From Octopus vulgaris (lineage: Eukaryota): DNA of 64,000 nucleotides. The notes beneath the pieces were generated by a model that was not told where the DNA came from, searched no databases, and saw only the letters and a list, made by a program, of their open reading frames with translations. Numbering within the stretch: the first letter of the stretch is position 1; each line of letters opens with the position of its first letter. The translations under genes were made by a program, and so were the position numbers. The stretch is from positions 80,910,001-80,974,000 of the forward strand of contig OX597820.1 in assembly GCA_951406725.2 (NCBI GenBank), given 5' to 3'. Shown here piece after piece: positions 22,847 to 52,877 of the stretch.

Positions 22847-22899
<53 letters not shown>

Positions 22900-24947: not shown

Positions 24948-25017
<70 letters not shown>

Positions 25018-25032
25018 CATATATACATACAT

Positions 25033-25066
<34 letters not shown>

Positions 25067-25527
25067 GTCAGCTAATGATGGAGGTAAGTTGGATTGTTGG
25101 TATGGCTGTGGAATAACACATCCTTTTGGTATATAATGCCGTGACATCTGCTATACAATCTCACCAAGTCCCAAACTAACAAATATTATTATGTTACTCC
25201 ATATATTCTCTACAAATAGGCAATCGAGTCGCAAATGACAACAAAATAAATCTGAAAAATCGAATATTTCATTGATTAAGCAATTATTAAGCAATGGATT
25301 ATCTGGTTAATTAGGTATTTGACGAATAATGATATAAGGAATCGAATTATAACCAATGCTTGTGATTTTATTGGCACATTGACCCCTTCCAAGACATACA
25401 TGTATATATATATACACACACACACCTCACTTGTATATTTACCACTTCTAAGGTTCCACTCGCTATGAAATATATATAGCCCGTATCTTATCTACTTCAT
25501 TCCTTAATTCTTGTATGTATGTATGTA

Positions 25528-25580
<53 letters not shown>

Positions 25581-28390: not shown

Positions 28391-28447
<57 letters not shown>

Positions 28448-28871
28448 CATATGTGTGTGCGTATTTGAAAATGACTTTATAAATACGCACATATACATTT
28501 ATACATGCATGAACGCATATATACTCACACACACACACTCTCACCCATCGGTTCTTCATACGTTTTCAACATAGAGCAATTACAATGCACTTAGCTGTAA
28601 AGCACATGACAGAACTAGATAAGCAAAGGTTAGTGGGAAACACTTCTAAGCTCAACTGAGTTGTTAAATAAATTAAGCGATTAGTGATGGAAGCTATACT
28701 AATAACATAGTGGAATGTTAAATGCACAGACAACACATACTAGTCGCACTCAAAAGAAAAATATCTGACTAATGACGTATTAATTTAAAGGTCGAAATTC
28801 AAATTCCGGTGGTAACATCAAAACAATGACATTGACACTTTGTCTAGCATAAAGTAGCACAAACACACACC

Positions 28872-28906
<35 letters not shown>

Positions 28907-31900: not shown

Positions 31901-33024
31901 ATTGTTCACTAATGTATGATATATAGAATATAAGAGATCAACAATCACAAAAGTTTACACACACATACACACATACTATATATTATTTATATGTACATAT
32001 ACACAAATGTGTGTGTACATGTATTGTGATTGTCAAATGAATTTCGAGTATCTTTGTATTCTCATTGCAGGGCAGATGCCTGTCACAGTCTTAATAACTT
32101 TTTTTTTACATGGACCTTCAGTTGACTGTCTAACCCTGAGTTTGATCTTACATATTTTTTGACAAATACATCGCATTTTGTTTTATTTTTGTCAACAATT
32201 ACATTGACAGTGGCTCTGGCCTTGTGCATTAAGACAAAAGGAATTTTCAACAAGTTAGATTATCACACCATTGAACATGAAGAACAGCAGTGATACGGCA
32301 GAGCTGTTGGTGATATGTACATCCCTTGTTGATCTCATGTTATGTTAAAGTGAGATTATTTCAGGATCCTATACCATATAGAATTTTAACAGTTTCAAGT
32401 TTACAGAAATAACGTTCCACTTTTTGATGGCAATTTCGATTATTTTTTTCTGACATATTTCAAAGTTTGTTCTGTCTTTTTACATTTTGACTTCATGTGC
32501 TATTGGGGTGAACGTTTTCTTTAATTGTTCTTAGTTTGTTAAATTAATTATCGGTCATGTTCTGAGGTCCGCTATAAATGATGACTTGTGACAAGACGAG
32601 AATGCATTACTTACTAACTTTATGAAATTTCAATTTCCAGTTTTACAGCATTTTGGATATTAATTACATCAATTTAATGACTGAAGTTATTAGATAAATT
32701 TTTATTGTCTTTGCAATATATTCAGTGCGTAAATAACAGTAAATGAAACTTTTATTCATTTCACAAATACGTTAAAATAAGAAAGAAATGTAGTTTTTCC
32801 CACCCACAGAAAAACGATACTATTGATGTATGAACTTTCTTTAAGAAAAAAGCGTTCTTTGCATGAATACTTTATCCTAAAGAGCGATTGGAATTTTGAT
32901 AACGCAGGCGAAGTGCAAAAACAGTTTAGGAGGAATTTCAAACAGATATGAATGTATGCGTGTGTATCGGTCTATATATATTTGATGAGGCCTAAATTAA
33001 TTCATTAATTAATTAGAAAGGCTG

Positions 33025-33114
<90 letters not shown>

Positions 33115-34159
33115 GAATAAAGTTTAGACCCAGAAGCAATGTATCTGAAAGTTTTTGAAAACTGACTACTGCCAACTATTACTTACCTTTTATCTTCCAT
33201 GTAAGCACTTATCTTCTATGAATCAGTCCTAGTTTAATTTGATTATGAACTTATTTATTTTCCCTATATTTCTAGAGTAATTACAAAACATTTATGCTAT
33301 TCAATTACAATTAACTGTGCAAATGGAAACATTCCCTAAAATTTTGTAGTTCAACACGTCCATGATTTACTCAGAAGCATGTTTAACTGCAGATGAATAC
33401 CATAAAAGCTATAGAGGCAGTAAGATTTTAAATGGATGTGCAAGTCAAAGAAAGTACATGTTATATTTACACAACCCTCTCTTTATAATATGCGCGTCAT
33501 ATGCGTAGTAGGTAGGGAACCTGGTGAGTCGAGTCCAATCATTAACACTAGATTGAAAGCTGAATTTCAATTAGATCTAAAAGTACAAAACATATTACCT
33601 ATTCCATATGGCTACACTTACAAATTCCAGTGTAATAATATAACTTTAACATATAGTAAAATAATTTTGAAATAATATAAAATAATGCATAATAACGATG
33701 TGACATATAAAATGAGATTATATATTGCTAAAAAATGTGATTATCAGGTATAAAACCCTTTAAATCCCTGCGCGCGAGACTTGAGCCTGCTCAAAGAGGA
33801 AGTAGTCCAGAAGTTACTGAGAGAACAATCAAGGAATGTATAAGTGCTGAACATCCGAAGTTGTTACCTGAGATTCAACAGGCTAGAGATTATCTTGCTG
33901 CTCCAAAAGGTAACTGTAGAGGTGGGTCATGCGATTCGAAGACAAAATTGCTTCAGCTTAACTGCTCTACACAAAATCACTTGCCCTCTGCAACTTTCAG
34001 CAGTAGTCTTCCATGTGTTTTATATTACTTAATGAAATATATGCTTTCTATACATTTGTGCTTTTAAAAGCACTTCTTTGCTATTACTATCATTTTCACT
34101 TTCACTCTCTCTCTCCTATACGCAAACATATTCTATCTCATAATGATATATATTATATG

Positions 34160-34228
<69 letters not shown>

Positions 34229-36235
34229 GGAGTAAGCACATAAATGTGAGACAAGGTGGAAAAAAGAATACTCAAATACCAGAGGTAGAGTAATAAGCTT
34301 TATTTAACGGGAACGTGAAACTCCGAGTAACAGCTTTTGTTATATTTCTGCTGCTTTTAAATAAAGTATATATATATAAAGAAAAGAAAAATTATAAGCG
34401 TAGACGATCTTTTAATACAAAGTTGGTACAAATCCAATAAAGATTCTGCAAGTTGTTTCCAAGCCTAATTAATTCCAAAACAAAACGAAAAAAAAAATCC
34501 TTTTGAAATTAGAATTAGGCTTTTCTTCAGGAACTCATTATCGGAATTAATGGGTTCAATCAACAAAAATATAAAGACTTTTAATAGCCCAGAAAGGAAC
34601 AAACAATTAAATTATGATAGAAGGAAATTACGCGGACGCCAGACCAATCAAAACCAGAAAAAAAAAACAGAAAAAAAAATATATATGTAAAAATCCACTT
34701 CAGTGTTGATTAAAATAGCAATTCACAATATATAAATATTTGATAAAATTTGCTATTACCGCCTAAACTACACATAAAGTTAATGAAACAAATAATCTAT
34801 TAAATACTAAGAATTATAGAGTTAGCTAATTAAAATATTAAAAAATTAAAAACCAATATATTATTCACTAAAGCGTAATTAATACCATAATTCAAAGTTA
34901 ATAAAATGATGATTCCAAACGAAAACAAAAAGAAATTAATTTATTTACAAATGGCCTACTTCGAGTAAAACAGAGTAGTTTTCCTTCGATATAAATTCGT
35001 ATCAATTTTAGTGGATAATATATTGGTTTTTAATTTTTTTAATCTTTTAATTAGCTAACTCTATAATTCTTAGTTGTTAATAGATTATTTGTTTCATTAA
35101 CTTTATGTGTAGTTTAGACGGTAATGGCAAATGCCGTTATCAAATATTGTGAATTGTTATTTTAATCAATGTTGAAGTGGATTTTTACATATAGATTTTT
35201 TTCTGGTTTTTTTTTTTCTGGTTTTGATTGGTCTAGCGTTCACGTAATTTCCTTCTATCGTAATTTAATTGTTTGTTCCTTTCTGGGCTATTAAAGGTCT
35301 TTATATTTTTGTTGATTGAAGGCATTCCTGAAGAAATGCCTAATTTTGATTTCAAATGAATTATTTTTCCATTTTGTTTTGGAATTAATTAGGCTTGGAA
35401 ACAACTTTAAAAATCTTTTAGTTGAAACCAGTTTAATATAGGACCTAATTTTCCAAGAATACAGATAACAGAAATTTCTCTGAAAAATGTGTGTTGAATT
35501 ATTTGCTTTAGATTAAATTTCAAAGTTTGCTTCGAATGTTTGCCTTAAATTGTTTTGCTACAGTGAAAATCAATCGTAAATAATATCTACATATTCACCC
35601 CGCCCAAAAAGAAAGACATTTGCTGTTGATTTTTCCTTTAATTTTCATCTTAAATATTATAGAACACTCATCAAGTTTAGATTTCTTTGCCGTTGGTAAG
35701 GATTTGAAGACCTTACATCATCCAACGCAGCCAGGATCAGTAAAGAAACCCAGTCTACTGAAATTTGTACGACAAGGTGACACCTCAGAATATCCAGAAA
35801 TAGCTCATGGCATGCTTCCCACTGGAACTCCTTTACAGCAGTTAAGCAGACCCTGTGGAGGTTAGCAATTTGATAACAATTTCGGGGTTTATTTTAGCTC
35901 CAAAAACGTTTGTGGAACTACTAGACATACAAAGATGACAGAAGTAATCCTATATTATATAAACTTTGCAGTTTATATAATATAAACTTTTAATATATAT
36001 TATATAATATATATATTAATGCTATATAATATAAACTTTATATTTAATATAAACTTTGCATAAAATTAAATCATACAATAAGTACTAGAAAATTCTTCAA
36101 CTGAACCCTACTAAATAGCTCATTAAATTTTTTTGAGTTTAATCGAAAAAAATATAGATTTTTTCTATTTTTATGATTAAATATCCTGATTTTATGCTAT
36201 ATTATTTCAGTCATATCTGATACATGCGTGAGTGT

Positions 36236-36270
<35 letters not shown>

Positions 36271-38136
36271 GTGCGTGCGTATGTGCGTATGTGTGTGCAC
36301 GTACGTACACACGTATGTATGTATGTATGTATGTATGTATGTATGTATGTATGTATGTTTAGAGGTAGCAGTCCGTCTCGCGAGACCATGAATTTCCGTC
36401 AGGAAAGCTGGAAAGTTTTGCTTCGATCTTAGAAAAGGAGCGTCTGTTGTAAATGCAAAGATCCACATGTGAGTGATAGTCACATCGGCAGTTGGTTAAG
36501 CAACTAACTAATCGATCGTTCGTTAAAGGCGTTAGTCAAACAATCAATTGGTTGTTTAACCAACGCATTAAACAAACCTTCGATTAGTTAGCTGGTTAGA
36601 TATTTTACAGATTGATTAACATAAAGAAGTGATATAGAACCTGTGGGTGTGATATAGAACCAGTGGGTGTGATATTATTACTGGCGTAATGACCCTCTCA
36701 AGACACATAAGGTATTTTTAATTTTTTTATTTCCCATCCAAAATCGATGAAAATAATGAATGCTGTTACTTCACCACAAGTTCTATCATCCATTGTTTTA
36801 GAGGTTTTCTTGAACATATTGTACTTCATTAATAGTTGTCAGATCAGAATGATTGGTATCCTTTTATTATTTTTTTCTTAAGAAAAACGATACCAAATAT
36901 CTTTAGGAATCAACTGAAGAAAAGCATAAAAACAAAGAGGTAAAAAATTGGAGACAGTGCTACAATTTACGCGGTTAGTTTGATATCTTTAACAAGTTCA
37001 GATTATAAACTTATAGTTTTATGCTGAACTATTTCTTTTCTTGTATATATTGGACTTTCCACCTTGCTTTATCAAAAATAAGCACATGTGAAGCAAACAT
37101 ACAAAGAAATGCGCGTTAATACACATATTTGCATACTTAATACATATGCGTGCACACATGCATAATTTTAAATGTAAGATATCCCGTTTTAATAAGCATT
37201 AACGTTTAACATTGCAATGAAAAGTAAGTAAAGCGACTGCACCAAAGGTTTTGATCTTTCGTTGACAGATAAAGGGATGTCTCGAAATAGTTTCTGGTGT
37301 CGTTAAGCCTTCATCAGAGAAAGAAAACTTATATGTTGTCATCAGAGAAATGATTAGTTTATTGCTATTTGATGTATATTCAAAATTGGTCTAAGCTTAA
37401 CAAGTCAGCATATGCACTATCAACAACGATTGACTAATAATATTGGTATGAAAAAGTACGCCTTACATTTCAGCTATCCCCCAAACACTAAGTAGTGATC
37501 TATATGCTTATTTATCTCTGTGTATGTGCGTGCGTGTGTATGTGTGTATGTACAGGCAACCAGTCTGTCATTGTATCAACTCAAATGCGTTGGACAGGAA
37601 ATGTTGTGCGTATGTAAGATAATAGGATTCTAAAGCAACTGTTCTACGGTGAAATGTGTACTGGAAAGCATCCTCGGTACAGAGTCTGCATAAAAGGCAA
37701 TTTGAAAATACTGATATCAGCGTAAAGTACTAGGAAGAACTAGCTTTGGAAAGAGTTGAGCAGAAGAATCGTATAAGGGAATAATGACCTTCGATAATCT
37801 GGACGATGCAGGTAATACAAGGGATATATATATATATATATAAGTATCAATCTTAAAATAATTATTGAGGTTGGTTTAATCGATTAAAACTTTGATGTTG
37901 TGCACTAGAACTGTCACGTTCCTAGGACTCAAATATGTAGTTGGATTACAGCCATTCTGGAGTACTACATTCGAACGGGTACTCAATAATTCCGACCCCA
38001 ATACTTATTTCAGACTGGTATTGATTTTATTCAGTACTACTTGTCAAAATGAAAGGTCACAGCATATATAATTTTCTATATCGATATAAATATAGACTCG
38101 GACTCATATACACATAAACACACAAACATACACGTA

Positions 38137-38180
<44 letters not shown>

Positions 38181-38384
38181 ACCCGTGGCAATAGAATACA
38201 CTTGTTATGCAGTGGGATCGAACATGAACCACGAGGTGGTGAAGTGAACGGCTTCCCCCACGAAAACACGCTTCTGTCTATTCTATGTATATATTAAAAA
38301 TCTTGTTTTGAGTATTAGTATTTTAGCGACAACAGCGCCTTCTTCTTTCGGCAACCAAGTCCAAAAATTTACCACACATATACG

Positions 38385-38428
<44 letters not shown>

Positions 38429-41400
38429 CATTCAAAATAACAAAGAACATCCCAGCCTCTCTCAAAACATCCTCTTCTCAAAACTCAAGAAAGCAAATTT
38501 AACTCCAGATTTTTTGGCAACTAACTCACATATACAGGATGTCTCAGAAAGATTTACCCATGTTTAAAACTCTTCCTAAAGACTATCACTTTGGGTAATA
38601 TTATCTACATTTCACATAAAGATCTTGCATATGTCTTTTGTTCATGTGTCTATTGTTTCGTTCGTCTATAACAGGTTTGTAAACAAACGTGGCATCGAAA
38701 GCAAAACGTGACCAGATGGCCACTTTGAAAATAGTTGGCGTGAGCAACGAGGACGACAAAATAGTTGAATGTGTGCCATAAAATAGTGCTCAATATCTGG
38801 AAACAATTTATGGAGTCTGCTACAACCTCTAACAAGCCAATTCCTGGTAGGAAACGATCGATTCATACCAAACAAATTGCTGAAGCTGTGAAGAAGCGAA
38901 TGAACCGAAATCCTTCCAAGAGTGCGAGAAAAACTGCAAAAGCTCTTGATATTTCAAAACCGTTGATGCACGGGATTTTTAAAGAGGATTTAAAGCTAAC
39001 TGCACACAACAAACAATCTCGGCAGTTAATTTCTGCAGCTTCCAAGAAGAAAGGGCTCGACAGGGGTAAAACCATGTTAGATGAGATGAGGCGCACCGTT
39101 AACAAAGTGTTGATCTAGTCCGACGAGAAGATCTTCACCGTGGTGGCAGTTGCCAACAAGGATAATGACAAGCTTTATGAACGTAATGAAGAAGATTTGC
39201 CCGAAGGCAGCAGGAGTCATTAAACGTTGTCAGAAAACAATTTTACTCATGGTGTGGGCCGCAGTTGCATTTGATGGGTCCAGGTCTTGCGTGATCTTCA
39301 GCGATGCTGGTGTCAAGGACAACAGTAAAGTTTATGCAGAAATGTTGGATGAGAAAGTGTTACCCTAGGTCACAGAAACCTTTGGTGGCCGTTACATCGT
39401 CATTCAAGATAGGACTCTCGCCCACACATCCAGTTTGACATAGAGGTGGTGCAAAGAACATTTCAGCGGTTTGGGGGACAAGACGATATGGCCTCCCTCA
39501 AGTTCAGACATCAATCGCGTGGACTTTGCTATCTGGTCCATCTTAGAGAGAAATGTTTCAGCTCGCTCCTCTTCAAATGTGTTAGATCTGAAGAAAGCCC
39601 TTGTCTTCATGGGTATATATATAATATGAGGGAATATCATTCCAAACTTACAGGGAAAAATTCAATTTAGAAATACTAAATCAAATTTCACAAAATAAAA
39701 TATTTATATAAATTTTTAAAATACCACATTTTATCAATATATATGTATGTATGTTTATGAAAAAATTGCATTTATGTATTATCTATGTATAATAATTCCA
39801 TACATGTATGTATAAGTGTGTGTATATGTGTGTGATTGTGTGTGTGTGTGCACGCTCTAATGCCTAACACTGAGACTTATCCTGATTTAATAGATTCACT
39901 AATAACAACAATCATGATTCTTAGTCTATTTGAGTTAATATAGCAAAGTTGTGTATCTTTTCACTATTAAATTCATTCTTAATACATTTATTACAGGGAC
40001 CAGCTCACATATAATGAACAGTATTTCCTTACATAATTTTACCGTCTGGTTTTTGTGCGTTCAAAATGTTTTACAATTTTGCTTTTTGATACGTTTTCTT
40101 TTATCATTCATGGTTAAATATAAGCGTAATTATTATACTTTTAAATCCTCGAAGGATGATTTTTTTTTTTTTTTTACTGCGATATACATATATGTCTGCG
40201 CGCGCTCGTGAATGTGAATAAGTGTTACATTCGAGTATGTATTATATTTGTATATCATGACATACACAATTAACAATTCAAATTGTTTACTTTCAGGTAT
40301 TAAAACAAATTTATGTGTGTGTACTGTTTATTTTTCTATTTTTATAGATATAGAACATTCTTTTGCGTTGGGTTGTTTTTTTACATATTCAGGTGAAATC
40401 TGTTACTGCAATAATTTCTGAAATAATATTCATTTGAAAATATATTGAATTATAATTGTGTTTCTGTGCCTTGTCAAAAGAAAACAATATGCATAATATC
40501 ATAGTACACTGCATATGCTATACACATAACCATATTTTGTCAATAAAAGGTATAAAGACTCCTGAATCACTCCGCGAAGAATTGAAACATGCTATGAAAG
40601 AAGCAGATGAACCAGCATTGGCACGGGCTATCAAAGACGCTACAGCTGCTGGTTTTCCAGAACTGGCATCTGATGTACAAAAAGCTCGTGATAAATTGGA
40701 CCAAATGAGAGGCGGACGTGGAGGTAAGATTCTCAGAAATATTACTGAGGTAAAAACACTTGAACATCCTACTATGCTAGCACCTATGCATTCCTCCGTT
40801 TTGCTAGATTTCTTCTCACTCTTAATTTTGCGATGTAGAAACAGTCCTTGGAAAGACTCTGGGCACAAGAATGGCTACCACATACATCACATATTTGTTG
40901 ACTTCATTGAGGGAAATCATTTCCCAGTTCATTGGGTCCAGCCCAGAATTATTCGGTTATTACACTAACTGTCACCTTCTCTTTCCCCTTCACTTTCCCC
41001 CTCTCTTTCTCTCTCTCTCTCTCTCTTTGTGAAGAACAATACTGTTTCTTCTTTGTCAGCACGTTTTATCTCTCGTCATTTCACTTCTCTTACACCTCTG
41101 AGATCACTGTCTTATTGACCATTCCATTCTCACACTCTCTGCTTCAAACCTACTTCGACTTTCCCTTCATCCACAAACCATGTATTCCTCTGTCTTCGCT
41201 GGTTGTGTAACTGCTATCATTATTCAGCTGCAATACATGTCAGGTCTATTTATTCGACGTGCTTATCCACTCACATTTAGTCAAGCATCCTCTTCCCGTA
41301 CTTGTGCCATCGACTACACTTCAGCTCTTACACACCACGTCCGGAACCCAGCTCACTGCATCCAGGTGCGCTCTCCTCTGCCTAATATTATACTTTCCGT

Positions 41401-41787
41401 TTTCCCTCCTCTCACCCATTTTTTTCTTTTAAGCAACCCACGTAGCCTCCTCAACCACAGCTTGATACGGGAAAGAAACATCCCATATATATTCCCTGTT
41501 CCCGTCTTCGCTGTTATACCCGTTCTTTCCTTACAAACATCGCCAGCCACACTGGACCTTCCGCGTTAAAACTCTTCCCGGTACACTCCCAGTGACCTCA
41601 TATATGTGCTCAAATTATTACTTTGCAAAAAAATGAGGGCTGTGATATTAAAATCTCTCATTTGCGAGGAATCCGTGCGATGAAATAGGTTGAGACATAC
41701 TAATGCCTGTATTCTAGCGTGACCATAACAAATACCAGGAATTGGTAAAAATAAAAAGAATAAAAGAATATGTATGAATATGTACAC

Positions 41788-41857
<70 letters not shown>

Positions 41858-41994
41858 GAAAAACGATTAGCGATCTATACAAATCAAATTTTTATATATA
41901 AAAGATGGAGGTGGAAATAGCACAGAAATAAGTCTAAGATATTTCAGTTTAAGAGGGAATTTAATAAACGTGATATTGAAAGGACATTTAACAC

Positions 41995-42046
<52 letters not shown>

Positions 42047-45000
42047 TGGACATAGATGCTTTTTAGCCACTCTCTTGGCAGGAACACAAAGATTTCTTTT
42101 AAACAATAGACAACTACACCCCTTCTCTCATTCTCTAACACTTTGAACTCTATACCAAAATAGAAGATAAATTGTTTTTACTTCAAATTTTTATAAATTT
42201 TTACTGATATTTGATAAGATAAGATTCATCGAAACCGGTAATATCTTCTTTATATAATTTTTAGAATTTTTATTAACTTCCCTCTTAAATCGAAATTATT
42301 AAACTTATTTTTGTGCTAGTCCCAACTCCATCTTATATATATATATGTATATATATAAAGAATAAACAAGTCAGCAAGATTGTACAAGTTGTATTAAGTT
42401 AATGATATATCATGGAGATATAAGTTGACAATTCTAAAACACTTTTGGTTCAAGCTGGTATATCTATCTATCTGTCTGTCTGTCTATCTGTCTGTCTGTC
42501 AGTCTGTCTGCCTGCCTGCCTGTTTGTCTGTCTATCTATCTATATATATATACATGCATACATACATACATACATACATACATACATACATACATACATA
42601 CATAAATACATACATACATACATACATACATACATACATACATACATACATACATACATAAAGTGGAAATGTGTGTGTTTATATGATGCATTAAACTTCT
42701 TTCACAAATAGCAACAAAATCTGCTGAATCTCTGAAAAAAATGCTTCATGATGCTGTTGCTATGAAGAACAAATCAGCGCTTGAACAAGCTATCAAGGAA
42801 TGTGAAGCTGCAGCTTACCCCGAGTTATCATATGACCTTAGAGAAGCCAGAGATGCGCTTGAAAATATTGGTGGCGGTCGTGGAGGTAAGTAACACAAGC
42901 CATAATAGATTTTCACAGTTATAATGACATATATATACGAAAGGATATATAAATATTTTGGGCTTTAGTGGATGGCATAGCATTTCAAAATTCTGGATTC
43001 GTTAAAATAAAGTTCAGATTAAGATCTAAGTTCAAGGTTGTTTTCCTTCCTGCAAAATTGGTATCATTGTACCTTTATTATACTATAATCTTTTTGAAAG
43101 GCGGCGTATTTTCAGAGAAGGTTGGTAACGAATAACGTAACAGTATTTTTGTTACAAGTTGAATGTCCTACCAGTTCAATTTTGGTTTTTAACCTTCCGT
43201 AACTGTGATAAAAGGATTGCGTTATTTCAATTAATATAATAATCTTTATGTGCAATCATCATATATATTTTTTTACTGCCAACAAGGGGCTAAACATAAA
43301 GGGAACAAACAAGGACAGACAAAGGGATTAAGTCGATTACATCGACCCCAGCGCGAAACTGGTACTTTATTTAGCGACTCCGAAAGGATGAAAGGCAAAG
43401 TCGACCTCGGCGGAATTTGAACTCAGAACGTAACGACAGACGAAACACCGCTAAGCATTTCGCCCGGTGCGCTAACGTTTCTGCCAGATCGCCGCCTTTG
43501 CAATCATCATATAACAGGCTCCCGGTGACTGATATTACATTTTAGTTTCTGTTCCTAGTTAAAGCTTATATATCTCACATTACTAATGCATTCAGAGAAA
43601 TAAGATTCACATCAAATATTTGATTTCCTAAGAATATGCGTATACTTATCATCCGTTCACATAATCCCACTAACCGCATTTGCAGTAAATCTAGGTCTTA
43701 TCTGTTACTACGAGAGAAATCAGTTAGAGAATTGAATACTTTAAAAACTGTCAATCAAATGTAAGCTTCCTGTAACTCTAGTCTTATTTTTAATCCCTGC
43801 ATATATCTATGATTACTTTTTTATCCTTTTCAGGTTCCAAGTCTCCAGATATTTTGCGGAACAAACTTAAGTCTGCCATAAGACAAAAGGATCCTATTGC
43901 TATTGAAAAAGCTATCAACGAATGTGTTGCTGCTGGGCAACCAGAACTGACGGGAGATATCCAGCAAGCGAGAGATACTTTAAATAGTATCGGAGGTGCA
44001 CATAAAGGTAAGTGTCTCTCAATATCATTTTGTCTAAGATAGAGTAGAAGTCAGCCTTGGACGAGTTGGTAGGATTGCTATTTTTTTTAGGAATCTATTG
44101 TAACATTTAGTGGAGAAAAATGTCCATCTGGTTGTGGATCTCTGGCTAGTAAGTCTAACATGTAATTGGTTGTTGTACACTGGACACTATACAATCCATA
44201 ATTCGAGGAAACGACTAAACCCTATATCAGATTGGCTATAAGATGATCTTTGGAATTAAGGTTTGATGATGAATATTGGAGAGGCGTCTTTAAATGTACA
44301 AGAGTGGTTAAGTTCAATGTTTGGTAGCTAACAAACAACCCGTCAATTTTATGGTATTTCAGCTGCAGTAATTATTTTTAGCGATTTCAACAAGTCCGTT
44401 TGAGATACAACATCCACAGTAGCTTGGTGGTTACAGAATACAAACCACCGATCTGTTGGTTGGTTTTCCACAATATTCTTAACTTGTGTTATGTCACTCG
44501 TTTATCATTTCTTATTTACTCTGGAAACCAAGGTTACAAGTTAAGCATCTTTGAAAGATACTCGACATATAAAACTGTAATACGGAGTCGTAGATACTAC
44601 TTGATCCGGGCCCACCCCAAACAAATGGCATACATGGAGTGTGGATGACAAGTGGCTCTCATAGAGACCCTACAAATCATTAAAAACAGTTCTGGTCGAC
44701 ATTACTCGTTGCCTCTGCCTGGGAAAAATACGTCTGGGAAAAGAGATATATACTAGGCTGATGGGCAGCAAACATTGTTAATAGTTTTCTTGTATTACAG
44801 ACTAAGTTCTGTAGATCTGCTTTTGTCCTTTCAACTATCCTGCTTCATTTCTAATAATAGATACTGCTCTCAAATATAAGGTCGATATTATGTTATCATC
44901 ATTCAACATTGAATTTAATATTCTCTTTATTCTCCATTTGTGCTGATATATAATCCCATTTTTTTCATTTCTTTTTCTTATTTGATTCCATCAACCTCTA

Positions 45001-48000
45001 TCACACCCAGGGATTAATACCTTGCACCCTCCTTCATTCGATTATTTTAATTCCTGGCTTTTGTTACACCTTCATTTCAGACCAATTTTCCTTTCCTCAG
45101 AATCAATACTGTGCACTTGGGAAACCCAAAATCCACCGAATATCTCCAGAAAATAGTCGGGCACAATTTATTTACTACACTGTCCAACTGTTTCTCATTA
45201 ATCGTGAACAAATTCAAATCATCTCTATAGAGTAAAAGGTTTAGCTTGTCAATACTTCTCCCCGGATCATAGGGTGTCTTTACCTATTGTAACATACGAG
45301 TGACATGAGAACTATAACGAATAGCATGTGATACACACTGTCTTCCTGAAATAATTCTCGATTTATGCTAACTTTTCCAATGGGCAGCTACTTGGTGTTC
45401 CATTGTCTCATACTGCCACAGATTAATACTTTGATCTTAACTGCCACTTTATAGATATCCATGGGGTTTTTTCGCTCTAGCTATGTGGTACCATATCGTA
45501 ATAATCTATCCAGGTCACTCCCGAATTTGTCAGCCTTTCTTATACAGTTCTTTATTACCATTTTGCTAAGGTGACATAATTATTGTTGAACAAGAGGCCT
45601 CAGTGAAAAAATAAAACTTAACGGAACGCAAGTGCGCCAGGCAATGTTTAGTTTCGAATATATAATGTGTTATTCAAATATATCCGGGTTCGTTTGGAAA
45701 TCTTTTATATATATAGAGAGAGAGAGAGATTTAAGGGGCCTTTGAGATAATGTAAGCAATTATTTCAAAATAATAAACTATATTGAAAAGTAACAATGTT
45801 AGAATGTTGGAAATAATACAATTCTGTTTTTGTTGTTGTTTTTTTCATTTATGTTCTGAGCTTAAGTCCAAGCGGTATTAATTTTGATTTTAGTCACGCT
45901 GAGATTGATAACATAAGCTTTTGTACTTTTCTAATAAATCACTTAAATATTTTTGTTTTGTTTGTAGCTCCAAAATCTCCATCTCTCTTGCGTGATCAAC
46001 TAGACCATGCCGCTAAACTGAAAGATATTGTTGGTCTTGAACGTGCTATTGCTGAAGCTGAAGCAGCCAAGTCTCCAGAATTAAGCAATAAAATAAAACA
46101 AGCCAGAGACCTTCTCGATTCTTTGGATGGTGGTGGCAGATGTAAGTAATTTAAGTTATTTCTATTACCTTCGTCGCCAGTTTTATAATTATACAAACCT
46201 ATATAAACACACAGATATACACGCTTGCCTACACCCGCACAGACACACGCATATATATGTATGATTATATGAAAATTACTTCCATATAATCAATATTTAT
46301 ATTTTATGTGATTCTCCCAGTTCCTGAAACAAAGAAGTAACACAGAAAATACCTCCTCCTCCGTTACAAACTCCTCATTGTGGTTAATGAAGAGAAATTA
46401 ATATTTTGAATAACAGCAAAAGTAGCCGGATATATTGCATTTTCTTGTTAATCACTGCATTTTAGCAGATTAAATTTAACTTTGGTTTCTTTTAGTTTTT
46501 ATGAAATTTATCAATTTGCTTTCATCGACCTGTATTCTGCATTCCTAGTGGAAAGATACGAATATACCAAAAGCTTGAATAAAAAATCATTCTTTTGATT
46601 TTTATTCACATCACAAAATGATACCGTAAAGTTTTGTAGAAACATATTTCCATTTTAAAGTCCATTAATATATATGCAGGGGAAGCGCATGTTGCTGAAG
46701 CAATACCGGACAATTAGCCAAAAAGTTGGCGAGGGCATATCATGCCACTTGAATTTCTATGCCCCAAATTTGAAAATCTATACCTTGTTTGGTCAATAAT
46801 CCTAGTTCTGTGTAGTTCATATAACTCCATATAATACTGCTACATATATTTATCTGCCAACTGCATAACGTTACGGATACTAAACATAAGTATCAGTCTA
46901 GGTTGGCTGCAGAAGTCTGTGAATGAAAACAATAATGATTATGATTTCTAACATACTCACAAGCACACAAATTTTCGGAAAAGCAACAGATGCTTAAACT
47001 GACCTATGAAGGATGCAAGATAAAGCTGACCGTGAGAGCATGTAGACTCAGAATAATGAGGGAAAAACTAAATACTCTGAGAAATTGATCTAACATGCTA
47101 CATTCTTCCCGCTAATGCCTTCACGAATAAATCTATTAACTCGACATGCGAAATTCCATTTAGAAATGACAATATCAATCAACAACTGTCTATTTATTTA
47201 TATGTAAGCCTGTATATGTTTATTTATATATGTTTCTCCAGTTTCTTATTTCACTTTATTTCATTGAACATTTTTAGCAAGAAGCTTGTCACCCGAGCAG
47301 GTTGGTACTTTCCTTGACCAAATAAACGCATCAATAATTCATAAGGACAAACCTAAGTTGGAGAAAGCAATTGCTGCAGCTGAACCTTACAGACATCCTC
47401 AGCTGGAACCTCAAATTCAGAAAGCCAGACCATTGTTGGATGCTTTAGATATTAAAGATAGTAAGAAAATTTCAATTTCAAATAAATTTAAACGTTTTTT
47501 ATTTGTTATGATCTTTATCATCAGCTAATTAACCAGGGCAACAGTTGCTCTAGACTCTTGATTCGTTATTATTAACGATTGATCCACATTTCTTTTATCA
47601 ACAATTGTTCCACATTTCTTCGTGATAGACAATTAAACGAAAACATAAACTAAATTCTGTAAATTAAGTAAATTCTGTCGCAGGTTATAGGCTCAGTTAA
47701 GCTATATAATACTTTTTGTATATGAATTGACTAGGAATCTAAGTATCTATATAATCATGATCCATCTTGTCTTCGATTTCCCTGAGAGTTAGTCACATTT
47801 ACAATGAGACTGCAATCTCAAAGATGCAAACCTATTCACAAACGGAATTACATCTGATGTAATGTTGAAATACGGTTAAGCATATATATATAACTCTCCA
47901 ACAGACATATCGTATATTGGTTTCAAATTTTGACACAAGGCCAGCTATTTGGAGGGAGTGGGTAAGTCGATTACTTCGACCCCAGTATTCATCTGGTACT

Positions 48001-48227: not shown

Positions 48228-51200
48228 GTGGATTGTCGGAAAAAAGAGTACTTAATACCATGGCAAAGATTAATAATATTTTATTTTGGTCGAGGCAGTC
48301 TCTTGCTTCTCTAAGTTTCACCTGTAGGTGCACAACATCTTCAGGCAAGTTGTTACTGGAAACAGGCCATACATACATACATAACAGACACATATACACA
48401 CATGTTTGTGCATATTTATATTTATACACACCAACAGATACACATGGATTGTATTATATATTCATTTTTCTTTCCCTCGCACAGAACTCGAAAGTGCTTT
48501 CTTGACTGACAACCAGGAAGATATTCGACGATGCGTTATAGAGATTGAACAAAAAAATCTCACCGATTATTTGTCTATTGAAGTGAATGAGGCTCGAAGC
48601 AGGATCCGCGGTTATGCAGCCCCTGATCCCAGTGCCTTTCTTAATCGTGACGATGTCAGCATTGACTCAAGAACTAGTTCTAGAATGGGCTGGTACATGC
48701 GTTCTGCTGGTTTCTCTCATGATCTTCTCATTAGTGCATTGGTGGTCCTTAGCGAATATGAAAGACATTCTGAGGTATGTAATAAGCTATTTTACGATTG
48801 TTAATTATAACTGCGAGAGTTACGAGATATTTGCATTCTCTCACAAGTAATTGATTTAACATGTATCGGGTTTTAAAATATTGCTAATTTTAACTGTCAA
48901 TTCCAAAACTTTAGACTTGCTAGTAAAATATTCATAATTATTACAGAGGAACTTGCATGAGATCTAGTAGATAAAGTGATGAATTCTAGGCCGTAGGTAT
49001 ACTTGATTGAATTTCGTTAGACAATGTTCTGAATCCATAATCTATAGCGAAGTCGTCCTACCTGTAATACCTACCATATAGTGGTAGGATTTATAACTGT
49101 AAGTAGTGCGATTTTATTAAAATGAATGTATAATACTTTGATCAAACCCTCTACTTCCCAAAGCAACTTGAAACAAATGGATATTAAGATGATCTCCAAC
49201 AGTGTAAATAGGCAAAATCAAAAATATAAGTACTGTACTTGCAAATTTACTGGACCATAAACATTTAAATTTCTTTTTAATAAAGAATATTCACACTGGC
49301 AGTGCTGAAATTAAATATCATTAGTAATAGGGTATCTTAATTCCATCTGGTATTTCAGCTTGTTATTAAGGTATAATAAGGGCACATATACGTTTATGGA
49401 TATTTATACAGTTTGCAAATATTGATGTTATAACTGGTTATAAAATTAGATTTTTGACATATTTTGTGCTTTGCTACAGGCCGCCATCCGCCTTGTTTTA
49501 TTGAAATAGGTTATCAATAGAAATAAATAACTCAGCTCAAGATCCTCTCAACTACGTTTACTTTACAGCTTTCTACGTTGCTTGTACCAAACCCAATAGA
49601 TGAATTAAATTCGGCATGCAAAGTTAACGAAATTCTCTTTAATCTGGCAAAGAATATACATATATAAATATAAGAAAAGCAAAACAAGCAATTACTCTGT
49701 TTTAATTCTGAAAATCGTCAAGAAGCTAGTCTCTATATTAAAGTAAAATTTAACGTTACTAATGACAATTACTAAACCATCAATATATGTTAAAGCCTTT
49801 GGATTAAAACCAACGTTAAAATAAAATTAAGCATCATTACTTAATATATTGTCTTGATCACGTTATTCCACAACTAACTGTTTTCTTTTCTTTATATTCA
49901 CAGTCACAGGCATGGAGAAATTACCAGCATTTCTTTGACATTTCAAATTCAGACGGCTCCAGTCGTCGTGTGCTTGGTTTTGACATTGATCAAATTTACC
50001 AAAACCTGTCTGCCAGAGCTGATGAAATACTCACCCGTAACACAACTGACGAAGTTCAGTTGATGAACAGAAGCGGACAAATGTCTTATTCTTGGGTAAA
50101 TAATAATTTATGTTTACATGACATCTTCAAAAATATTTCATCTGTACGTGAAAAATGCTTCATAGTTATTAGCGACAAAGGCAGTATTGATACCAAGAGA
50201 TAATATTTGTCCCCACTTAAGTGGATGGTGTGTTGGAACTGTGGTAGTTAGCATGAAGGAAACTCTCATATTTGCTTTAGGTGCATATAAACACTCTTGT
50301 TTACATCGCTAGTGGGAGACAAATATCTGCCGAGACTAACAGATGAGTGAATTTTGTAGCTTGTGAAACAGTTTTCGGATTTGTTTAGGTGACTGGTTTA
50401 AGCGAGTTCTTCATTTTACGACTCTAAAAACGACGGGAAATTTAGGAATATTAAAACAATCCTAATTATCACTCCTCTGAAAATATAAGGCCTTTATAGT
50501 CAATTAAAATAATCCAGTTTTGAGAGCAAACTACGGCGATCCGATAATTGCAAGTAGACAATGCTAAAGCTAACAGTAGATCTAAAAGGCACTGATTTCA
50601 TGATCCTCCATTGGTTCCTGAATGTTTGCTAAAGAAAATATATAACATTTATTTGCCTGAAAATTTTGATCAACCAAAATTCAAACAAGAGAAACTTTTG
50701 AATTCAAAATATGCGTGTAAATTTATTGACTCTCCATGGCAGAGACCTGTAGTTCTTCATGTCAATCTCAGCTATACGCGGTTACCCACTGTAAATTTGA
50801 TGAGCGTTGTTTTGTATAAAAATGTTAAATTAATCGAAAGAAAAAAGTTAGGATCTGAATCACTTTTCTGCATCAGTTAGCATCGCTTTTTTATGTGTGA
50901 GCTTACACCCAGCTAGATCTGATTTTCCGTTGAACTTAGTATCTTTTTGGTTTGCAAAATAGTTACCGGTAATTACATTCGAGTCGAGTCAATCAATTAT
51001 ACACCTTCCCCTACAGACATTGGCTTCCAGTGGAAATAATGATATTTAAATTAAGCCTTTTGTTGACTTCGGCCTTATGTAAAGAGGTAAAATACTACAA
51101 AGTATTTTCTCTGTTACTCAACTACTTCTATCATCTGCTGCATTCTTGTGTCTGAATAAAGATTTGTAACAAAGGAACGAGGTTACGCATTTTTGGAAGA

Positions 51201-51878
51201 AAGGTTTATTTCGGTTATAATGAAATTTGTATCTGACTGGTATAGCTTTAAATATTTTATCGACCCATAATGAAAGACTTATTCAATCTCGGTAAAAATT
51301 TCTGTGATTAAGTACTGCAAAATATAAAAATACATCGTTCTATTGAATCTACCACTCATAACTAAATAGTATATCACATTTTTATATAGTCATAACTAAA
51401 TAGTATATCACATTTTTATATACTGTCATAACTAAGTAGTATATCACATTTTTATATTGAAGTTTATTTGATTTGATTTTCTTTAATTTTGTTTTCATTT
51501 TCTTTTGTGTTTATTTTTTTAAAATTTTCTTTTATGTTTATTTTTTTTTTTTTCATTTTCTTTATGTGTATTTTATTTTCATTTTCCTTCCATCTTCAGA
51601 GTCGCTCTTTGAACGAACAAATGAGAGCATATTTCCATAACCTCAACGGTACTACGGGCGGTGGAGAAAGCAGTTTCGGAGAAACTCACAGTATGTCGCA
51701 AATGTCGGGCACAAGCAGGACAGAATATCAAGCTTTTACCGCAAGTCGAGAATCGTCTCAAGGAAGTGATAACACTAATGCCCATCGACCTGCAACTGAG
51801 AGGCATTCGACTACTTCTTCAGTTCGATCTGTTAACCGATCCGGTCCGGCTACTTTCTTTTCACAAAGAAAATACTAA
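87..51878 (+). CDS. 5'-incomplete multi-exon gene (29 exons in window): giant protein with 26 tandem ~58-aa helical repeats, a divergent dynein-MTBD-like/hillarin-type C-terminal domain and an S/T-rich tail
   Basis: All exons have AG/GT borders. Exons 1-26 are phase 1-1 with lengths divisible by 3 and no stops. Exon 27 is phase 1-0, exon 28 is 0-0, and exon 29 ends in TAA. Exon lengths sum to ~5.3 kb (~1,770 aa). The domain identity is inference from motif recall. Confidence 0.88.
653..826 (+). CDS. repeat exon 2 (type B, 174 nt)
   Basis: atag|..|gtcagc; [57 protein letters not shown]. Confidence 0.9.
1280..1453 (+). CDS. repeat exon 3 (type A, 174 nt)
   Basis: ttag|..|gtttgc; [57 protein letters not shown]. 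Confidence 0.9.
1967..2143 (+). CDS. repeat exon 4 (type B, 177 nt)
   Basis: ctag|..|gtcaga; [58 protein letters not shown]. Confidence 0.9.
2612..2785 (+). CDS. repeat exon 5 (type A, 174 nt)
   Basis: tcag|..|gttaga; [57 protein letters not shown]. Confidence 0.9.
3165..3338 (+). CDS. repeat exon 6 (type B, 174 nt)
   Basis: tcag|..|gttaga; [57 protein letters not shown]. Confidence 0.9.
3880..4053 (+). CDS. repeat exon 7 (type A, 174 nt)
   Basis: atag|..|gttaga; [57 protein letters not shown]. Confidence 0.9.
4379..4555 (+). CDS. repeat exon 8 (type B, 177 nt)
   Basis: ttag|..|gtttga; [58 protein letters not shown]. Confidence 0.9.
5358..5531 (+). CDS. repeat exon 9 (type A, 174 nt)
   Basis: ttag|..|gttagc; [57 protein letters not shown]. 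Confidence 0.9.
6020..6196. repeat. perfect 64-bp inverted repeat (fold-back) abutting a (TA)n tract
   Basis: 6020-6083 is the exact reverse complement of 6133-6196, with a 49-bp spacer. Confidence 0.92.
7514..7687 (+). CDS. repeat exon 10 (type B, 174 nt)
   Basis: gtag|..|gttaga; [57 protein letters not shown]. Confidence 0.9.
8020..10510 (-). mobile_element. decayed, internally deleted Penelope-like retroelement with diverged terminal direct repeats
   Basis: Minus-strand peptides [21 protein letters not shown]...[14 protein letters not shown] (PLE N-terminus-like), [13 protein letters not shown] and [15 protein letters not shown]. Direct repeat of ~8210-8310 at ~10413-10510 (tcatattag..cattc.ttaga..tattg.aatagat...acagatttagg.aactaaa). 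Ends approximate. Confidence 0.55.
11170..11290. repeat. (TAG)n and (CAT)n microsatellites
   Basis: Direct reading. Confidence 0.95.
11294..12135 (+). mobile_element. tRNA-derived SINE (Nin/Deu-domain-like) split by a MITE insertion
   Basis: Head ggcgacgagttggcagaatcgttagc...ctgagttcaaatt. It breaks at gacttatc (11453) and resumes as acttatcccctcccc...ccttgtgcc (~12091-12135). Confidence 0.75.
11454..12089. mobile_element. non-autonomous DNA transposon (MITE) with ~24-bp TIRs and an 8-bp TSD, Merlin-like
   Basis: Left TIR agatcttttctatttggctgcaaat; right TIR reverse complement ggatcttttctgattagctgccaat. Flanks gacttatc (11446-11453) and aacttatc (12090-12097). Superfamily inferred from the GG terminus plus 8-bp TSD. 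Confidence 0.7.
12135..12335 (+). mobile_element. Nin/Deu-domain-like SINE, 5'-truncated copy
   Basis: gttctgagttcaaattccgtcgaggtcgactatgcctttcatcctttcggggtcgatgaaataagtaccag; matches other copies in the window. Confidence 0.8.
12500..12673 (+). CDS. repeat exon 11 (type A, 174 nt)
   Basis: acag|..|gttagc; [57 protein letters not shown]. Confidence 0.9.
12925..13095 (+). CDS. repeat exon 12 (type B, 171 nt)
   Basis: ttag|..|gttcga; [56 protein letters not shown]. Confidence 0.85.
13443..13610 (+). CDS. repeat exon 13 (type A, 168 nt)
   Basis: gtag|..|gttaga; [55 protein letters not shown]. Confidence 0.9.
17295..17460. repeat. short fold-back element between (TA)n tracts
   Basis: atattgtataaatgatcgtgggtaa (~17332-17356) pairs with ttacccacgatcttttatacaatat (~17436-17460); inner pair aagaaaacaaata/tatttgttttctt. 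Confidence 0.7.
17471..17760. repeat. fold-back element with ~75-bp imperfect arms, same family as 61502-61760
   Basis: Arms ~17535-17609 and ~17682-17755; shared leader aaattagaaat.ttg.atttctaaat.tctcag. Confidence 0.8.
19018..19191 (+). CDS. repeat exon 14 (type B, 174 nt; TAGCAG tandem acceptor)
   Basis: tagcag|..|gtttgg; [57 protein letters not shown]. Confidence 0.87.
21640..21813 (+). CDS. repeat exon 15 (type A, 174 nt)
   Basis: polyT-atag|..|gtgaga; [57 protein letters not shown]. Confidence 0.9.
22896..23784 (-). mobile_element. mariner (DD34D-type) transposon, internally deleted and defective, inserted in (TA)n
   Basis: TIRs ttgggtcatcccataaataatacggttttt and aaaaaccgcattatttatgggatgacccaa, with TA flanks. 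Peptides [17 protein letters not shown]...QWIQKFRN and [18 protein letters not shown]. Confidence 0.9.
24535..24940 (+). mobile_element. RTE-clade non-LTR retrotransposon RT fragment
   Basis: [15 protein letters not shown]...[11 protein letters not shown]...[29 protein letters not shown]; degenerate RT motifs with an internal stop. Confidence 0.75.
25588..25646 (+). repeat. 4 tandem copies of a ~15-bp unit (aattcagcgc core) next to (TA)n
   Basis: acaattcagcgctaaataattcagcgctagataattcagcgcatagacaattcagcgc; possibly a transposon subterminal repeat. Confidence 0.75.
26870..27081 (-). mobile_element. diverged Nin/Deu-domain-like SINE
   Basis: Reverse-complement similarity to the 12135-12335 copy (ggcacaagg, catcgacc..agtact, atttgaact). 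Confidence 0.6.
27188..27361 (+). CDS. repeat exon 16 (type A, 174 nt)
   Basis: acag|..|gttagc; [57 protein letters not shown]. Confidence 0.88.
28000..28173 (+). CDS. repeat exon 17 (type B, 174 nt)
   Basis: ccag|..|gtaaga; [57 protein letters not shown]. Confidence 0.9.
29873..30046 (+). CDS. repeat exon 18 (type A, 174 nt)
   Basis: ctag|..|gttagt; [57 protein letters not shown]. Confidence 0.88.
31219..31395 (+). CDS. repeat exon 19 (type B, 177 nt)
   Basis: ccag|..|gttggt; [58 protein letters not shown]. Confidence 0.87.
33748..33921 (+). CDS. repeat exon 20 (degenerate type B, 174 nt; alternative in-frame donor after 33909)
   Basis: tcag|..|gtgggt; [57 protein letters not shown]. Confidence 0.72.
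34452..35406. repeat. long imperfect inverted repeat (~400-420-bp arms, ~135-bp spacer)
   Basis: 34452-34872 is the reverse complement of 35007-35406, e.g. gttgtttccaagcctaattaattccaaaacaaaa vs ttttgttttggaattaattaggcttggaaacaac. Confidence 0.92.
35663..35860 (+). CDS. repeat exon 21 (highly degenerate; 198 nt, or 180 nt from the acceptor at 35681)
   Basis: Open phase 1-1 frame ending ..[29 protein letters not shown]|gttagc. It keeps YPE and the family-typical GGAG|GTTAG end. Confidence 0.55.
36500..36593. repeat. imperfect palindrome/hairpin
   Basis: aactaactaatcga...gcgttagtcaaacaatcaat / tggttgtttaaccaacgc...tcgattagttagct. Confidence 0.65.
38533..39612 (+). mobile_element. Tc1/mariner superfamily DD37D (maT-type) transposase pseudogene
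   Basis: HTH region PGRKRSIHT...[17 protein letters not shown]; catalytic SDEKIF; IQD-(37 residues)-D ending [16 protein letters not shown]. Several stops and a frameshift; the 3' TIR is not seen. Confidence 0.85.
40550..40723 (+). CDS. repeat exon 22 (type B-like, 174 nt)
   Basis: aaag|..|gtaaga; [57 protein letters not shown]. Confidence 0.9.
41040..41700 (+). mobile_element. possible decayed Penelope-like element fragment (RT thumb region)
   Basis: [12 protein letters not shown]...[13 protein letters not shown] resembles the PLE pattern M..F..RGYP...IDR..AL; heavily degraded. Confidence 0.4.
42712..42885 (+). CDS. repeat exon 23 (type A, 174 nt)
   Basis: atag|..|gtaagt; [57 protein letters not shown]. 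Confidence 0.9.
43266..43498 (-). mobile_element. full-length Nin/Deu-domain-like SINE with a 15-bp TSD
   Basis: TSD tgcaatcatcatata at 43251-43265 and 43499-43513; tRNA-like head ggcggcgatctggcagaaacgttagc...gagttcaaattcc on the minus strand. Confidence 0.88.
43834..44007 (+). CDS. repeat exon 24 (type B, 174 nt)
   Basis: tcag|..|gtaagt; [57 protein letters not shown]. Confidence 0.92.
44880..45570 (-). mobile_element. decayed non-LTR retrotransposon RT fragment (R4/Dong-like)
   Basis: Minus-strand motifs [31 protein letters not shown] and FGFPKC, in RT order; frameshifted. Confidence 0.65.
45968..46141 (+). CDS. repeat exon 25 (type A, 174 nt)
   Basis: gtag|..|gtaagt; [57 protein letters not shown]. 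Confidence 0.92.
47278..47460 (+). CDS. repeat exon 26 (divergent, 183 nt)
   Basis: ttag|..|gtaaga; [60 protein letters not shown]. Confidence 0.88.
47918..48125 (-). mobile_element. Nin/Deu-domain-like SINE
   Basis: Reverse-complement match to the 12135-12335 and 43266-43498 family. Confidence 0.8.
48485..48774 (+). CDS. exon 27 (phase 1-0): last degenerate helical repeat plus start of the C-terminal domain
   Basis: acag|..|gtatgt; [42 protein letters not shown]...[31 protein letters not shown]. Confidence 0.88.
49910..50095 (+). CDS. exon 28 (phase 0-0; alternative in-frame acceptor at 49904)
   Basis: cagtcacag|..|gtaaat; [62 protein letters not shown]. Confidence 0.85.
51356..51458 (+). 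repeat. 3 tandem copies of a ~35-bp unit
   Basis: tcataactaaatagtatatcacatttttatata x3. Confidence 0.85.
51600..51878 (+). CDS. terminal coding exon 29 (Ser/Thr/Gly-rich tail)
   Basis: Long polypyrimidine tract then tcag|; [34 protein letters not shown]...ATFFSQRKY*. Confidence 0.85.
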   Translation, partial: SRSLNEQMRAYFHNLNGTTGGGESSFGETHSMSQMSGTSRTEYQAFTASRESSQGSDNTNAHRPATERHSTTSSVRSVNRSGPATFFSQRKY

Positions 51879-52207
51879 ACAAATTACGGCACTGATTCAA
51901 CTGGAAAATGATACCTTTTTGTTGTTCCTTTAATTTTGGTTTTCTATATTCACAATGATAGCAAGTACAAGGAATATATATTATTTGAACTAATATAACT
52001 TTTATATTCTCTTTTTAACCTTTTGCATATGTAAAGGTATAACTTTTTACTAAGCATTTAACCGCATTCCTTAAAATATATTCAGATCTACCATATCAGT
52101 TCATATATAAAGAGAAAGAAGCGAAACCCTACTTTCTCATATATTCTATAGAGAAGATAAGTTTTTATAAATTTGTTTTAGTAATAGATAATATTTCGAT
52201 TGTTGAA

Positions 52208-52213
52208 AATAAA
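52208..52213 (+). promoter_or_regulatory. candidate polyadenylation signal (a second at 52647-52652)
   Basis: AATAAA downstream of the stop codon; weak evidence in AT-rich DNA. Confidence 0.35.
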
Positions 52214-52877
52214 TATAAAAATTTCAGATTGTTTGGTTAAGAATTTTTGCAGTTTTCGCACTTCAAATAGTTAAAGTTTCGTAATATTCTATATATTTCA
52301 TATGTAAATGGCTTGTACCTAATATGACAGCAGTTACGCAAAGAAGCAGACTAACACAATTTAAAACAATATTATACATTTCTCTTATTTTTACAAACTT
52401 ACTTTTGTGATAAAAATGATTGTGGATACTGTTTCAAAATTACAAATTATTTGAAAGAAGGAAAACACTTGAACTGAAATTATTTGATGGTTATTGAACA
52501 GATATGGTAGATTTTTATATTAATCATAATTATTATAATAAATGATTTAAATTACGATAATTATATACCGAATATACTATTTCAAACCTTCAACATTTAT
52601 ATTTGTTTTCCATTTATTTGCTCAACTTATAAAAGTGCCTTCTCTGAATAAAGTTAAACCTGTATTGTTTTAAAAAAACGACTTCTAGTTATCAATTCGC
52701 AATGTTTAAGACAAACAGTATAAGAAAAGAGCAACAAACTTACCGGTGGAACTCACACTACACATTTAGCGAATATCATCCACTTACTGACTGGCAAACG
52801 ATATATAAATGGTATGTGTGTGTGTGTACACAGAGAGAGATAAAGTGTGTGTTAGATAGATATACACAGATATATAC

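Follow-up and report, generated by a model that had tools for sequence, protein, structure and literature searches.

The last exons of a repeat-bearing gene in Octopus vulgaris raise the question of what domain closes the long series of helical repeats that precedes them, and of what such a domain would bind. The stretch of DNA analysed (64,000 nucleotides, hereafter referred to as the window) contains the 3' end of this gene, and an earlier note on its letters had proposed that the encoded C-terminus is a degenerate relative of the microtubule-binding stalk head (MTBD) of dynein, of the type found in hillarin and kyphoscoliosis peptidase (KY)-like proteins, in a cytoskeletal tether whose short helical linker has been massively expanded.

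Three tail exons on the plus strand follow the last repeat exon. The first (48485..48774) encodes the last half-repeat (to ~48606), a proline-containing linker (~48607-48657) and, from 48658, the MTBD-like helices H1 and H2, with the Tyr of a lost YxxP motif at 48694. The second (49904..50095) covers H3, with a conserved Trp at 49913, through H6 and the beginning of the CC2-equivalent helix, while the coding part of the third (51600..51878) comprises the end of that helix (to ~51638), a poorly conserved tail of 79 residues rich in Ser, Thr and Gly (44%) and the stop codon. The 3' UTR, on the same strand, extends approximately over 51879..52660, with contigs reaching 52464-52600 or beyond and AATAAA at 52208, 52537 and 52647. 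The peptides and exon joints that had been proposed are borne out: the peptides were located on the plus strand at 48487-48774, 49904-50095 and 51600-51875, and the junctions 47460>48485, 48774>49904 and 50095>51600 are of the GT..AG type and present in the contigs of all four RNA-like runs (4 studies), these runs being taken as RNA by guess and not by record, with joined forms that are free of introns, and their contigs being indicative of presence and not of level or tissue. Contigs link the last five repeat exons with the three tail exons, one of the seven joints missing in one run, and contig depth is far higher on exons than on introns. Downstream, the window contains an open frame (53204-53581, plus strand) with a Cys/His pattern reminiscent of the BED zinc fingers of DNA transposons, and a GC-richer block (53981-58681, minus strand) in which several broken frames look, by eye, like parts of an LTR retrotransposon (gag, protease, reverse transcriptase and RNase H). 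Elsewhere, a divergent, intronless beta-tubulin-like open frame was observed at L070:1495-2781.

The tail is the 3' end of an octopod gene spanning ~233 kb, which encodes, in this order, a transglutaminase-like domain, three Ig domains of the KY type, a charged helix, an array of 184 repeats (~58 residues each) and the tail. Upstream of the window (OX597820.1:80728375-80910000) are 159 further repeats, so that the earlier numbering of the tail exons as 27-29 counts the window only, and five N-terminal exons that encode the start, the transglutaminase-like domain (two exons), the three Ig-like KY domains and the charged helix. Residues 1-870 of an Argonauta protein map to these five exons with 74-96% identity, the N-terminus of that model mapping to the first exon located here. 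Pfam domains in the Argonauta ortholog are limited to PF01841 and PF23265. The transglutaminase-like core (PF01841) scores 25.1 bits in the ortholog against a cut-off of 23; the two exons matching it in O. vulgaris are 89-92% identical to the ortholog, and a single transglutaminase-like exon scanned alone scores 12.5 bits, below the Pfam cut-off. Ig-like_KY (PF23265) is matched by three stretches (E 6e-60) within an upstream open frame of 455 residues. Identity of the first tail exon is 98% with XP_014780069 of O. bimaculoides and 83% with a protein of Argonauta; the orthologs carry the database label 'uncharacterized', and LOC106876157 and LOC115214248 have zero mentions in the open literature searched.

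KY, hillarin, LTD-1 and Cyk3 have the PF01841 and PF23265 domains in common with the octopus protein. Unlike KY, which keeps its putative catalytic residues, the octopus transglutaminase-like domain retains the Asp and has no Cys or His at the presumed catalytic-triad motif positions, and the catalytic His is absent from the octopod domain in an alignment with FAP246; judged by sequence, its catalytic residues have apparently been lost. Of the upstream domains suggested for a search, the transglutaminase-like and the Ig-like ones were found, whereas no LIM domain was detected in the Argonauta model (Pfam) or in the exons matched to it here, and no SH3 domain either. Hillarin has an N-terminal LIM domain, and since none was found here, 'KY-like' probably fits the gene better than hillarin proper. 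A weak match (E 0.016) was observed between residues 151-290 of the protein P0006, the transglutaminase-like region, and FAP246, a protein of the ciliary central pair, which places domains of this type in a setting associated with microtubules. Eight more loci with KY-like Ig domains are present in the genome, on contigs C5, C8, C14 (four loci) and C26 (two loci); neither the tail nor the repeat was matched at E<=1 in 20 adjoining stretches (194 kb, nearby DNA only).

The repeats were searched for in 264 kb with a profile built from the 25 repeats of the window (E<1e-5), which yielded 184 matches, all on the plus strand and 119 of them distinct. The exons are mostly 174 nt long and 182 of the 184 repeats are flanked by phase 1-1 splice sites; two repeat pairs, each within one shared open frame, may represent double exons. 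All 184 are free of stops across the profile match. Mean identity between repeats is 38-48% by lag, with peaks at lags 2 and 4; all of the 150 scored matches to one repeat fall in this single locus, and the repeat matches no Pfam family over the cut-off. In the window, the last 25 intact repeat exons (87..47460, plus strand; mostly 174 nt, phase 1-1) each encode a helical repeat of ~58 residues, and the last five (40550-40723, 42712-42885, 43834-44007, 45968-46141 and 47278-47460) have GTAA donors and are spliced in series. Two decayed repeats with approximate limits lie on the same strand, one with an in-frame stop and a frame break (14517..14680) and the other a fragment (36890..36990). The product would reach ~11,800 residues if every exon were used, a figure obtained by arithmetic from the exons. 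Thus, with 184 repeats here against two before the domain in the aligned relatives, the claim of a massively expanded linker holds.

Upstream of the window, OX597820.1:80845236-80884640 consists of 17-18 tandem units of ~2,235 bp with four repeat exons each, at least 99% identical and yet not identical to one another. This block represents either a very recent amplification within the gene that added ~68 repeats or, in part, an assembly effect, and the differences among the units argue against simple assembly copies. A short interspersed repeat, probably a SINE, was also noted in introns of the window (43305-43498 and 47914-48123), where contigs from each of the four runs accumulate in very large numbers.

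Relatives of the tail were sought by a full HMMER scan (cut-off E<=0.001) with the last repeat and the octopus tail as the query. It identified 15 proteins, four close fragments (52-81% identity) and 11 distant proteins (21-29%), the latter being non-cephalopod relatives with E-values of 1e-10 to 7e-4 that include proteins of Helobdella, Lingula, Patella, Nucella, Ridgeia (2), Owenia, Gigantopelta and the sponge Oscarella; the proposed homology of the tail with the C-termini of invertebrate KY-like proteins is thus supported. Ig-like_KY is present in six of the 11 relatives, and Pfam MT matches three, that of the sponge alone exceeding the cut-off. The KY-like proteins of Lingula (XP_013404632), Helobdella (XP_009018530), Owenia, Patella and Gigantopelta share the domain order and a homologous tail with the octopus gene, but possess ~2 helical repeats and an intact YxxP where the latter has its 184 repeats and a remodelled tail. 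In an alignment of the 11 relatives with the octopod tails six columns are invariant, of which four, together with a Leu/Trp pattern, lie in the MTBD-like part. A profile of the 11 relatives alone, not fully independent as its members were picked by the octopus query, scores the tail of the window at 52.7 bits (E 2e-18, a one-sequence E-value) against at most 3.6 bits in 500 shuffles (284 scored), and the match is therefore not due to chance. In the reverse direction, the Ridgeia protein P0017 searched against the 2.8-Gb genome gave tail exon 2 as the best of six matches, albeit weak (E 0.18), the others including repeat exons of the gene itself and two sites within loci likewise matched by Pfam MT; P0019 gave only two matches, both in loci of the latter kind. 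Word-index protein searches returned 3, 3 and 4 proteins, and the alignments are consequently shallow (13 and 17 rows). The Oscarella pearsei protein P0020 has no KY domains; its N-terminus is weakly EF-hand-like (E 0.06) and is followed by two helical repeats and by an MTBD-like end that exceeds the Pfam MT cut-off. An Atlas cluster of similar make-up occurs in molluscs, and some mollusc clusters already carry the label of MT-domain proteins through automatic annotation. Neither the repeat array nor the occurrence of an MTBD-like domain within KY-like proteins was found described in the titles and abstract openings of the open literature searched; the family and the fold are known already, and it is their combination, along with the repeat array, that was not found there.

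The relationship of this family to the dynein MTBD (PF12777 MT; PDB 6RZA, 6RZB, 3ERR, 5AYH) is evident at the level of profiles. Searched against the PDB at E<=1, the family profile matched 18 sequences, 17 of them dyneins (14 so named and three recognised by title, length or an identical aligned stretch; best E 6e-6) and the last a designed protein. The alignment with DNAH6 begins at the end of CC1, covers H1-H6 and reaches into CC2, and Asp, Tyr, Trp, Leu and Trp positions common to octopus, the invertebrate tails and dynein are in register. The sponge protein P0020 alone matches dyneins (E 1.8e-5). A model of the canonical domain from Ridgeia (pLDDT 92.9) gave in Foldseek 32 listed matches, all to dynein-containing entries, one at E<=0.001, with TM 0.70-0.73 to isolated MTBDs; VIA gave Z 16.8 (rmsd 2.9, 141 residues), 16.7, 14.0 and 13.9 for four dynein stalk or MTBD chains and at most 7.7 for unrelated folds, and an Atlas model of the canonical domain agrees with the dynein match.

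For the octopus tail itself, no Pfam MT or dynein match was obtained with sequence alone (tail exons and O. bimaculoides proteins), the ESM Atlas gave no match for it, and phmmer of P0004 and P0006 against the PDB detected no dynein. A match to the MOC1 resolvase (E 1.3) and other weak rows of the phmmer searches were treated as chance. The tail was modelled with the O. bimaculoides sequence (113 of the 116 domain residues identical, no dynein in its alignment), the pLDDT being 81-92 over the repeats and 44-70 over the MTBD part. This model superposes over 115-118 residues on dynein MTBDs, with Z 9.8 for that of DNAH7 (rmsd 2.8 over 115 residues) and 9.3 for that of mouse dynein-1, values in the range (Z 7-10) that the structure-comparison tool calls common among helical proteins. 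In a wide VIA search, the best rows covering residues 115-238 of the model were dynein MTBDs (Z 7.4-7.9), ranked below two helical matches that are unrelated and fall on the half with the repeats. The Foldseek check that had been suggested placed dynein entries in the top six rows, but at an E-value of 0.026 at best. As the octopus tail alone has no dynein match, the link to dynein is transitive and complemented by a modest model; family profile, sponge protein and the canonical and octopus models together uphold the homology of the tail-family domain with the dynein MTBD, and the octopus tail is a remodelled relative of that domain by way of the invertebrate KY-like tails. The octopus tail, like its canonical relative, is predicted from the models to adopt the six-helix stalk-head fold, six helices between two long ones, and has, as dynein does, conserved Trp residues in H3 and where CC2 begins. 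Unlike dynein, the gene mapped from first exon to stop, and the Argonauta ortholog in Pfam, have neither an AAA+ ring nor a long CC1/CC2 coiled-coil stalk, and the domain follows helical repeats within a protein of the KY-like type. Further candidates for MTBD-like domains outside dynein were seen in chain L of the Toxoplasma intraconoidal microtubule entry 9ya2 (Z 8.7) and in an oomycete Impact_N cluster (TM 0.55), on which nothing was found in the literature searched.

In dynein, the tubulin interface is formed by H1, H3 and H6 according to one report (PMC6629372), and two others (PMC6125590, PMC4230729) single out K3298, K3299, E3378 and R3382 as key. The H1 Glu is present in all 11 relatives and the Arg or Lys that comes after it in 10 of them and in DNAH6, whereas the octopods have Arg and Gly at these positions. 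The placement of mouse K3298, K3299 and R3382 on the columns of the tail, made through the DNAH6 alignment and the mouse sequence, is tentative. YxxP occurs in 11 of the 11 non-cephalopod relatives, with two prolines in eight, and the octopods keep the Tyr and have lost the prolines, just as had been noted of the YxxPP motif. The H6 Ser, found in 10 of the 11 relatives, is Asn in octopods; the basic H6 position is present in only one of the 11 canonical relatives, which makes their own binding to microtubules uncertain too. Net charge of the domain is -2 and -1 in the octopods and -2 to +8 (median +3) in the relatives, and the CC1-equivalent helix, which runs unbroken in the canonical model, is interrupted by the proline-containing linker in octopus. 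With the H1 Glu/Arg/Pro-Pro motif lost and a proline linker in that helix, control of affinity by registry shift is unlikely. Dynein-style microtubule binding has probably been lost in the octopod tail, as far as its residues can tell, the losses affecting helices through which dynein contacts tubulin. The domain is nevertheless conserved among cephalopods, at 113/116 residues with O. bimaculoides, 93/116 (80%) with Argonauta and 71/114 (62%) with a more distant ortholog, far better than the adjacent C-terminal tail (32/78, 41%, and 22/76, 29%, with the latter two); it is thus remodelled and not decaying, and the word 'degenerate' was an overstatement.

The best explanation for these observations, to which we assign a probability of about 0.6, is a two-ended scaffold with a KY-type head, an adjustable helical rod and, at the other end, a domain that derives from the MTBD and has an altered surface. 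By analogy with KY, Drosophila hillarin and Cyk3, the pseudo-transglutaminase and Ig domains at the N-terminus may dock on a cortical or contractile scaffold. The literature places KY at the Z-disc with no enzyme activity shown (PMC6078408), describes the binding of Cyk3 to Rho1-GDP via an inactive transglutaminase domain, the action of Drosophila hillarin with septins at the furrow and an actin-like localisation of LTD-1 (PMC3718969, PMC3081291), and regards transglutaminase-like domains as co-opted for protein binding (PMC3718969, PMC6078408). A proteomic study (PMC11431876) names an octopus 'kyphoscoliosis peptidase', this one or a paralog, and proteomic data of this kind may bear on expression. 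The repeats would build the rod, the last helix of one repeat continuing in the model into the first of the next, and skipping of symmetric exons would set its length between about 10 repeats (~1,700 residues, Argonauta model) and at most 184 (~11,800 residues). The tail would have retained its fold, changed its binding face in cephalopods and likely serves to anchor one end of the rod.

An alternative is that the tail still binds microtubules through a rewired surface, the protein being a motor-less tether whose splicing defines how far from a cortical or contractile scaffold they are held. It would account for the MTBD topology kept in the model over 115-118 residues, the strong conservation among cephalopods and the Arg residues that persist near H1 and H6 in a shifted register; in addition, the Toxoplasma chain 9ya2_L, from a microtubule cryo-EM entry, matches the canonical model (Z 8.7) and suggests that proteins other than dynein may use the fold on microtubules. 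However, none of the H1 Glu and Arg, the prolines, the H6 Ser and the unbroken CC1 helix has been retained, the domain carries a slightly negative net charge, and the literature consulted on KY, hillarin, LTD-1 and Cyk3 points to Z-disc, septin, actin-like and Rho partners and not to microtubules. Such a tether is therefore considered unlikely, binding of the octopus tail to microtubules is doubtful to the same degree, and the domain may have lost the one activity that its homology predicts.

The adjustable rod of the preferred two-ended scaffold depends on the use of the repeat exons. In run X13 a contig joins exon 21640..21813 (plus strand) straight to the exon at 40550: of the 175 letters preceding the latter, the last 30 are identical (30/30) to the end of exon 21640-21813, the next best place having six mismatches, and five intact repeat exons have therefore been skipped. 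Donors of the GTAA type are found in all seven end repeat exons (the first two and the last five) against three of the 177 internal ones, copies that share ancestry and are not independent. Public gene models contain 10 (Argonauta), 23, 27 and 87 (O. bimaculoides) repeats collinear with the array described here. From this contig and the gene models, rod length is probably adjustable by variable exon inclusion. Support from RNA-like contigs extends to the tail and to the six final repeat exons in use, and inclusion of the other 178 is backed by open frames and the O. bimaculoides models. It could accordingly be argued that the tail is a genuine, conserved end domain while translation of most internal repeat exons is rare or absent, the array being a graveyard of birth and death in which the 17-fold block is neutral amplification or assembly error, and that the working protein is an ordinary KY-like one of ~1,700 residues. 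Internal donors are indeed mostly GTT-type (83/109 non-redundant), two repeats in the window have decayed, five exons are skipped in the sole informative contig, there are 10 repeats in the Argonauta model, and the 17 units of the block are nearly identical. But a mostly silent array is hard to reconcile with 184 stop-free repeats, 182 of them with phase 1-1 sites, with the strong divergence of the 119 distinct ones, with the 87 collinear repeats of the O. bimaculoides models (84-100% identity, 60 consecutive) or, for a simple assembly copy, with the differences among the 17 units, and we regard it as quite improbable. Finally, a merely convergent helical resemblance between the octopus tail and the dynein MTBD, which the low pLDDT of the octopus model and its want of direct Pfam, phmmer or significant Foldseek matches might suggest, is largely refuted, and very remote, given the unbroken chain of significant profile matches from octopus through the invertebrate tails to dynein, the five residues in register and the Z of 16.8 for the canonical member.

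Modular rods of the titin, nebulin and spectrin type offer an analogy for the array, their modules being unrelated to the repeat described here; the octopus array resembles them in having one exon per module, a 2- and 4-module periodicity and symmetric, skippable exons. More tentatively, a widespread and hitherto undescribed motor-less animal family, from sponge to annelids, brachiopods and molluscs, might bear the dynein stalk-head domain, and octopods might have turned it into a titin-scale ruler (at most ~11,800 residues), its length set by splicing of ~180 symmetric exons and its stalk head tethering it to microtubules or a new partner. The MTBD is usually regarded as a part of the dynein motor, and here, with strong support from structural comparison, it ends KY-like scaffold proteins across the invertebrates. 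An uncharacterised KY-like family thereby gains a testable ligand, microtubules, and its tails form a natural series in which binding faces range from intact to remodelled. In octopods the gene may encode a giant protein with an exon-per-module rod that is perhaps tuned by splicing, which would be relevant to the mechanics of cephalopod muscle or nerve and to the evolution of exon arrays.
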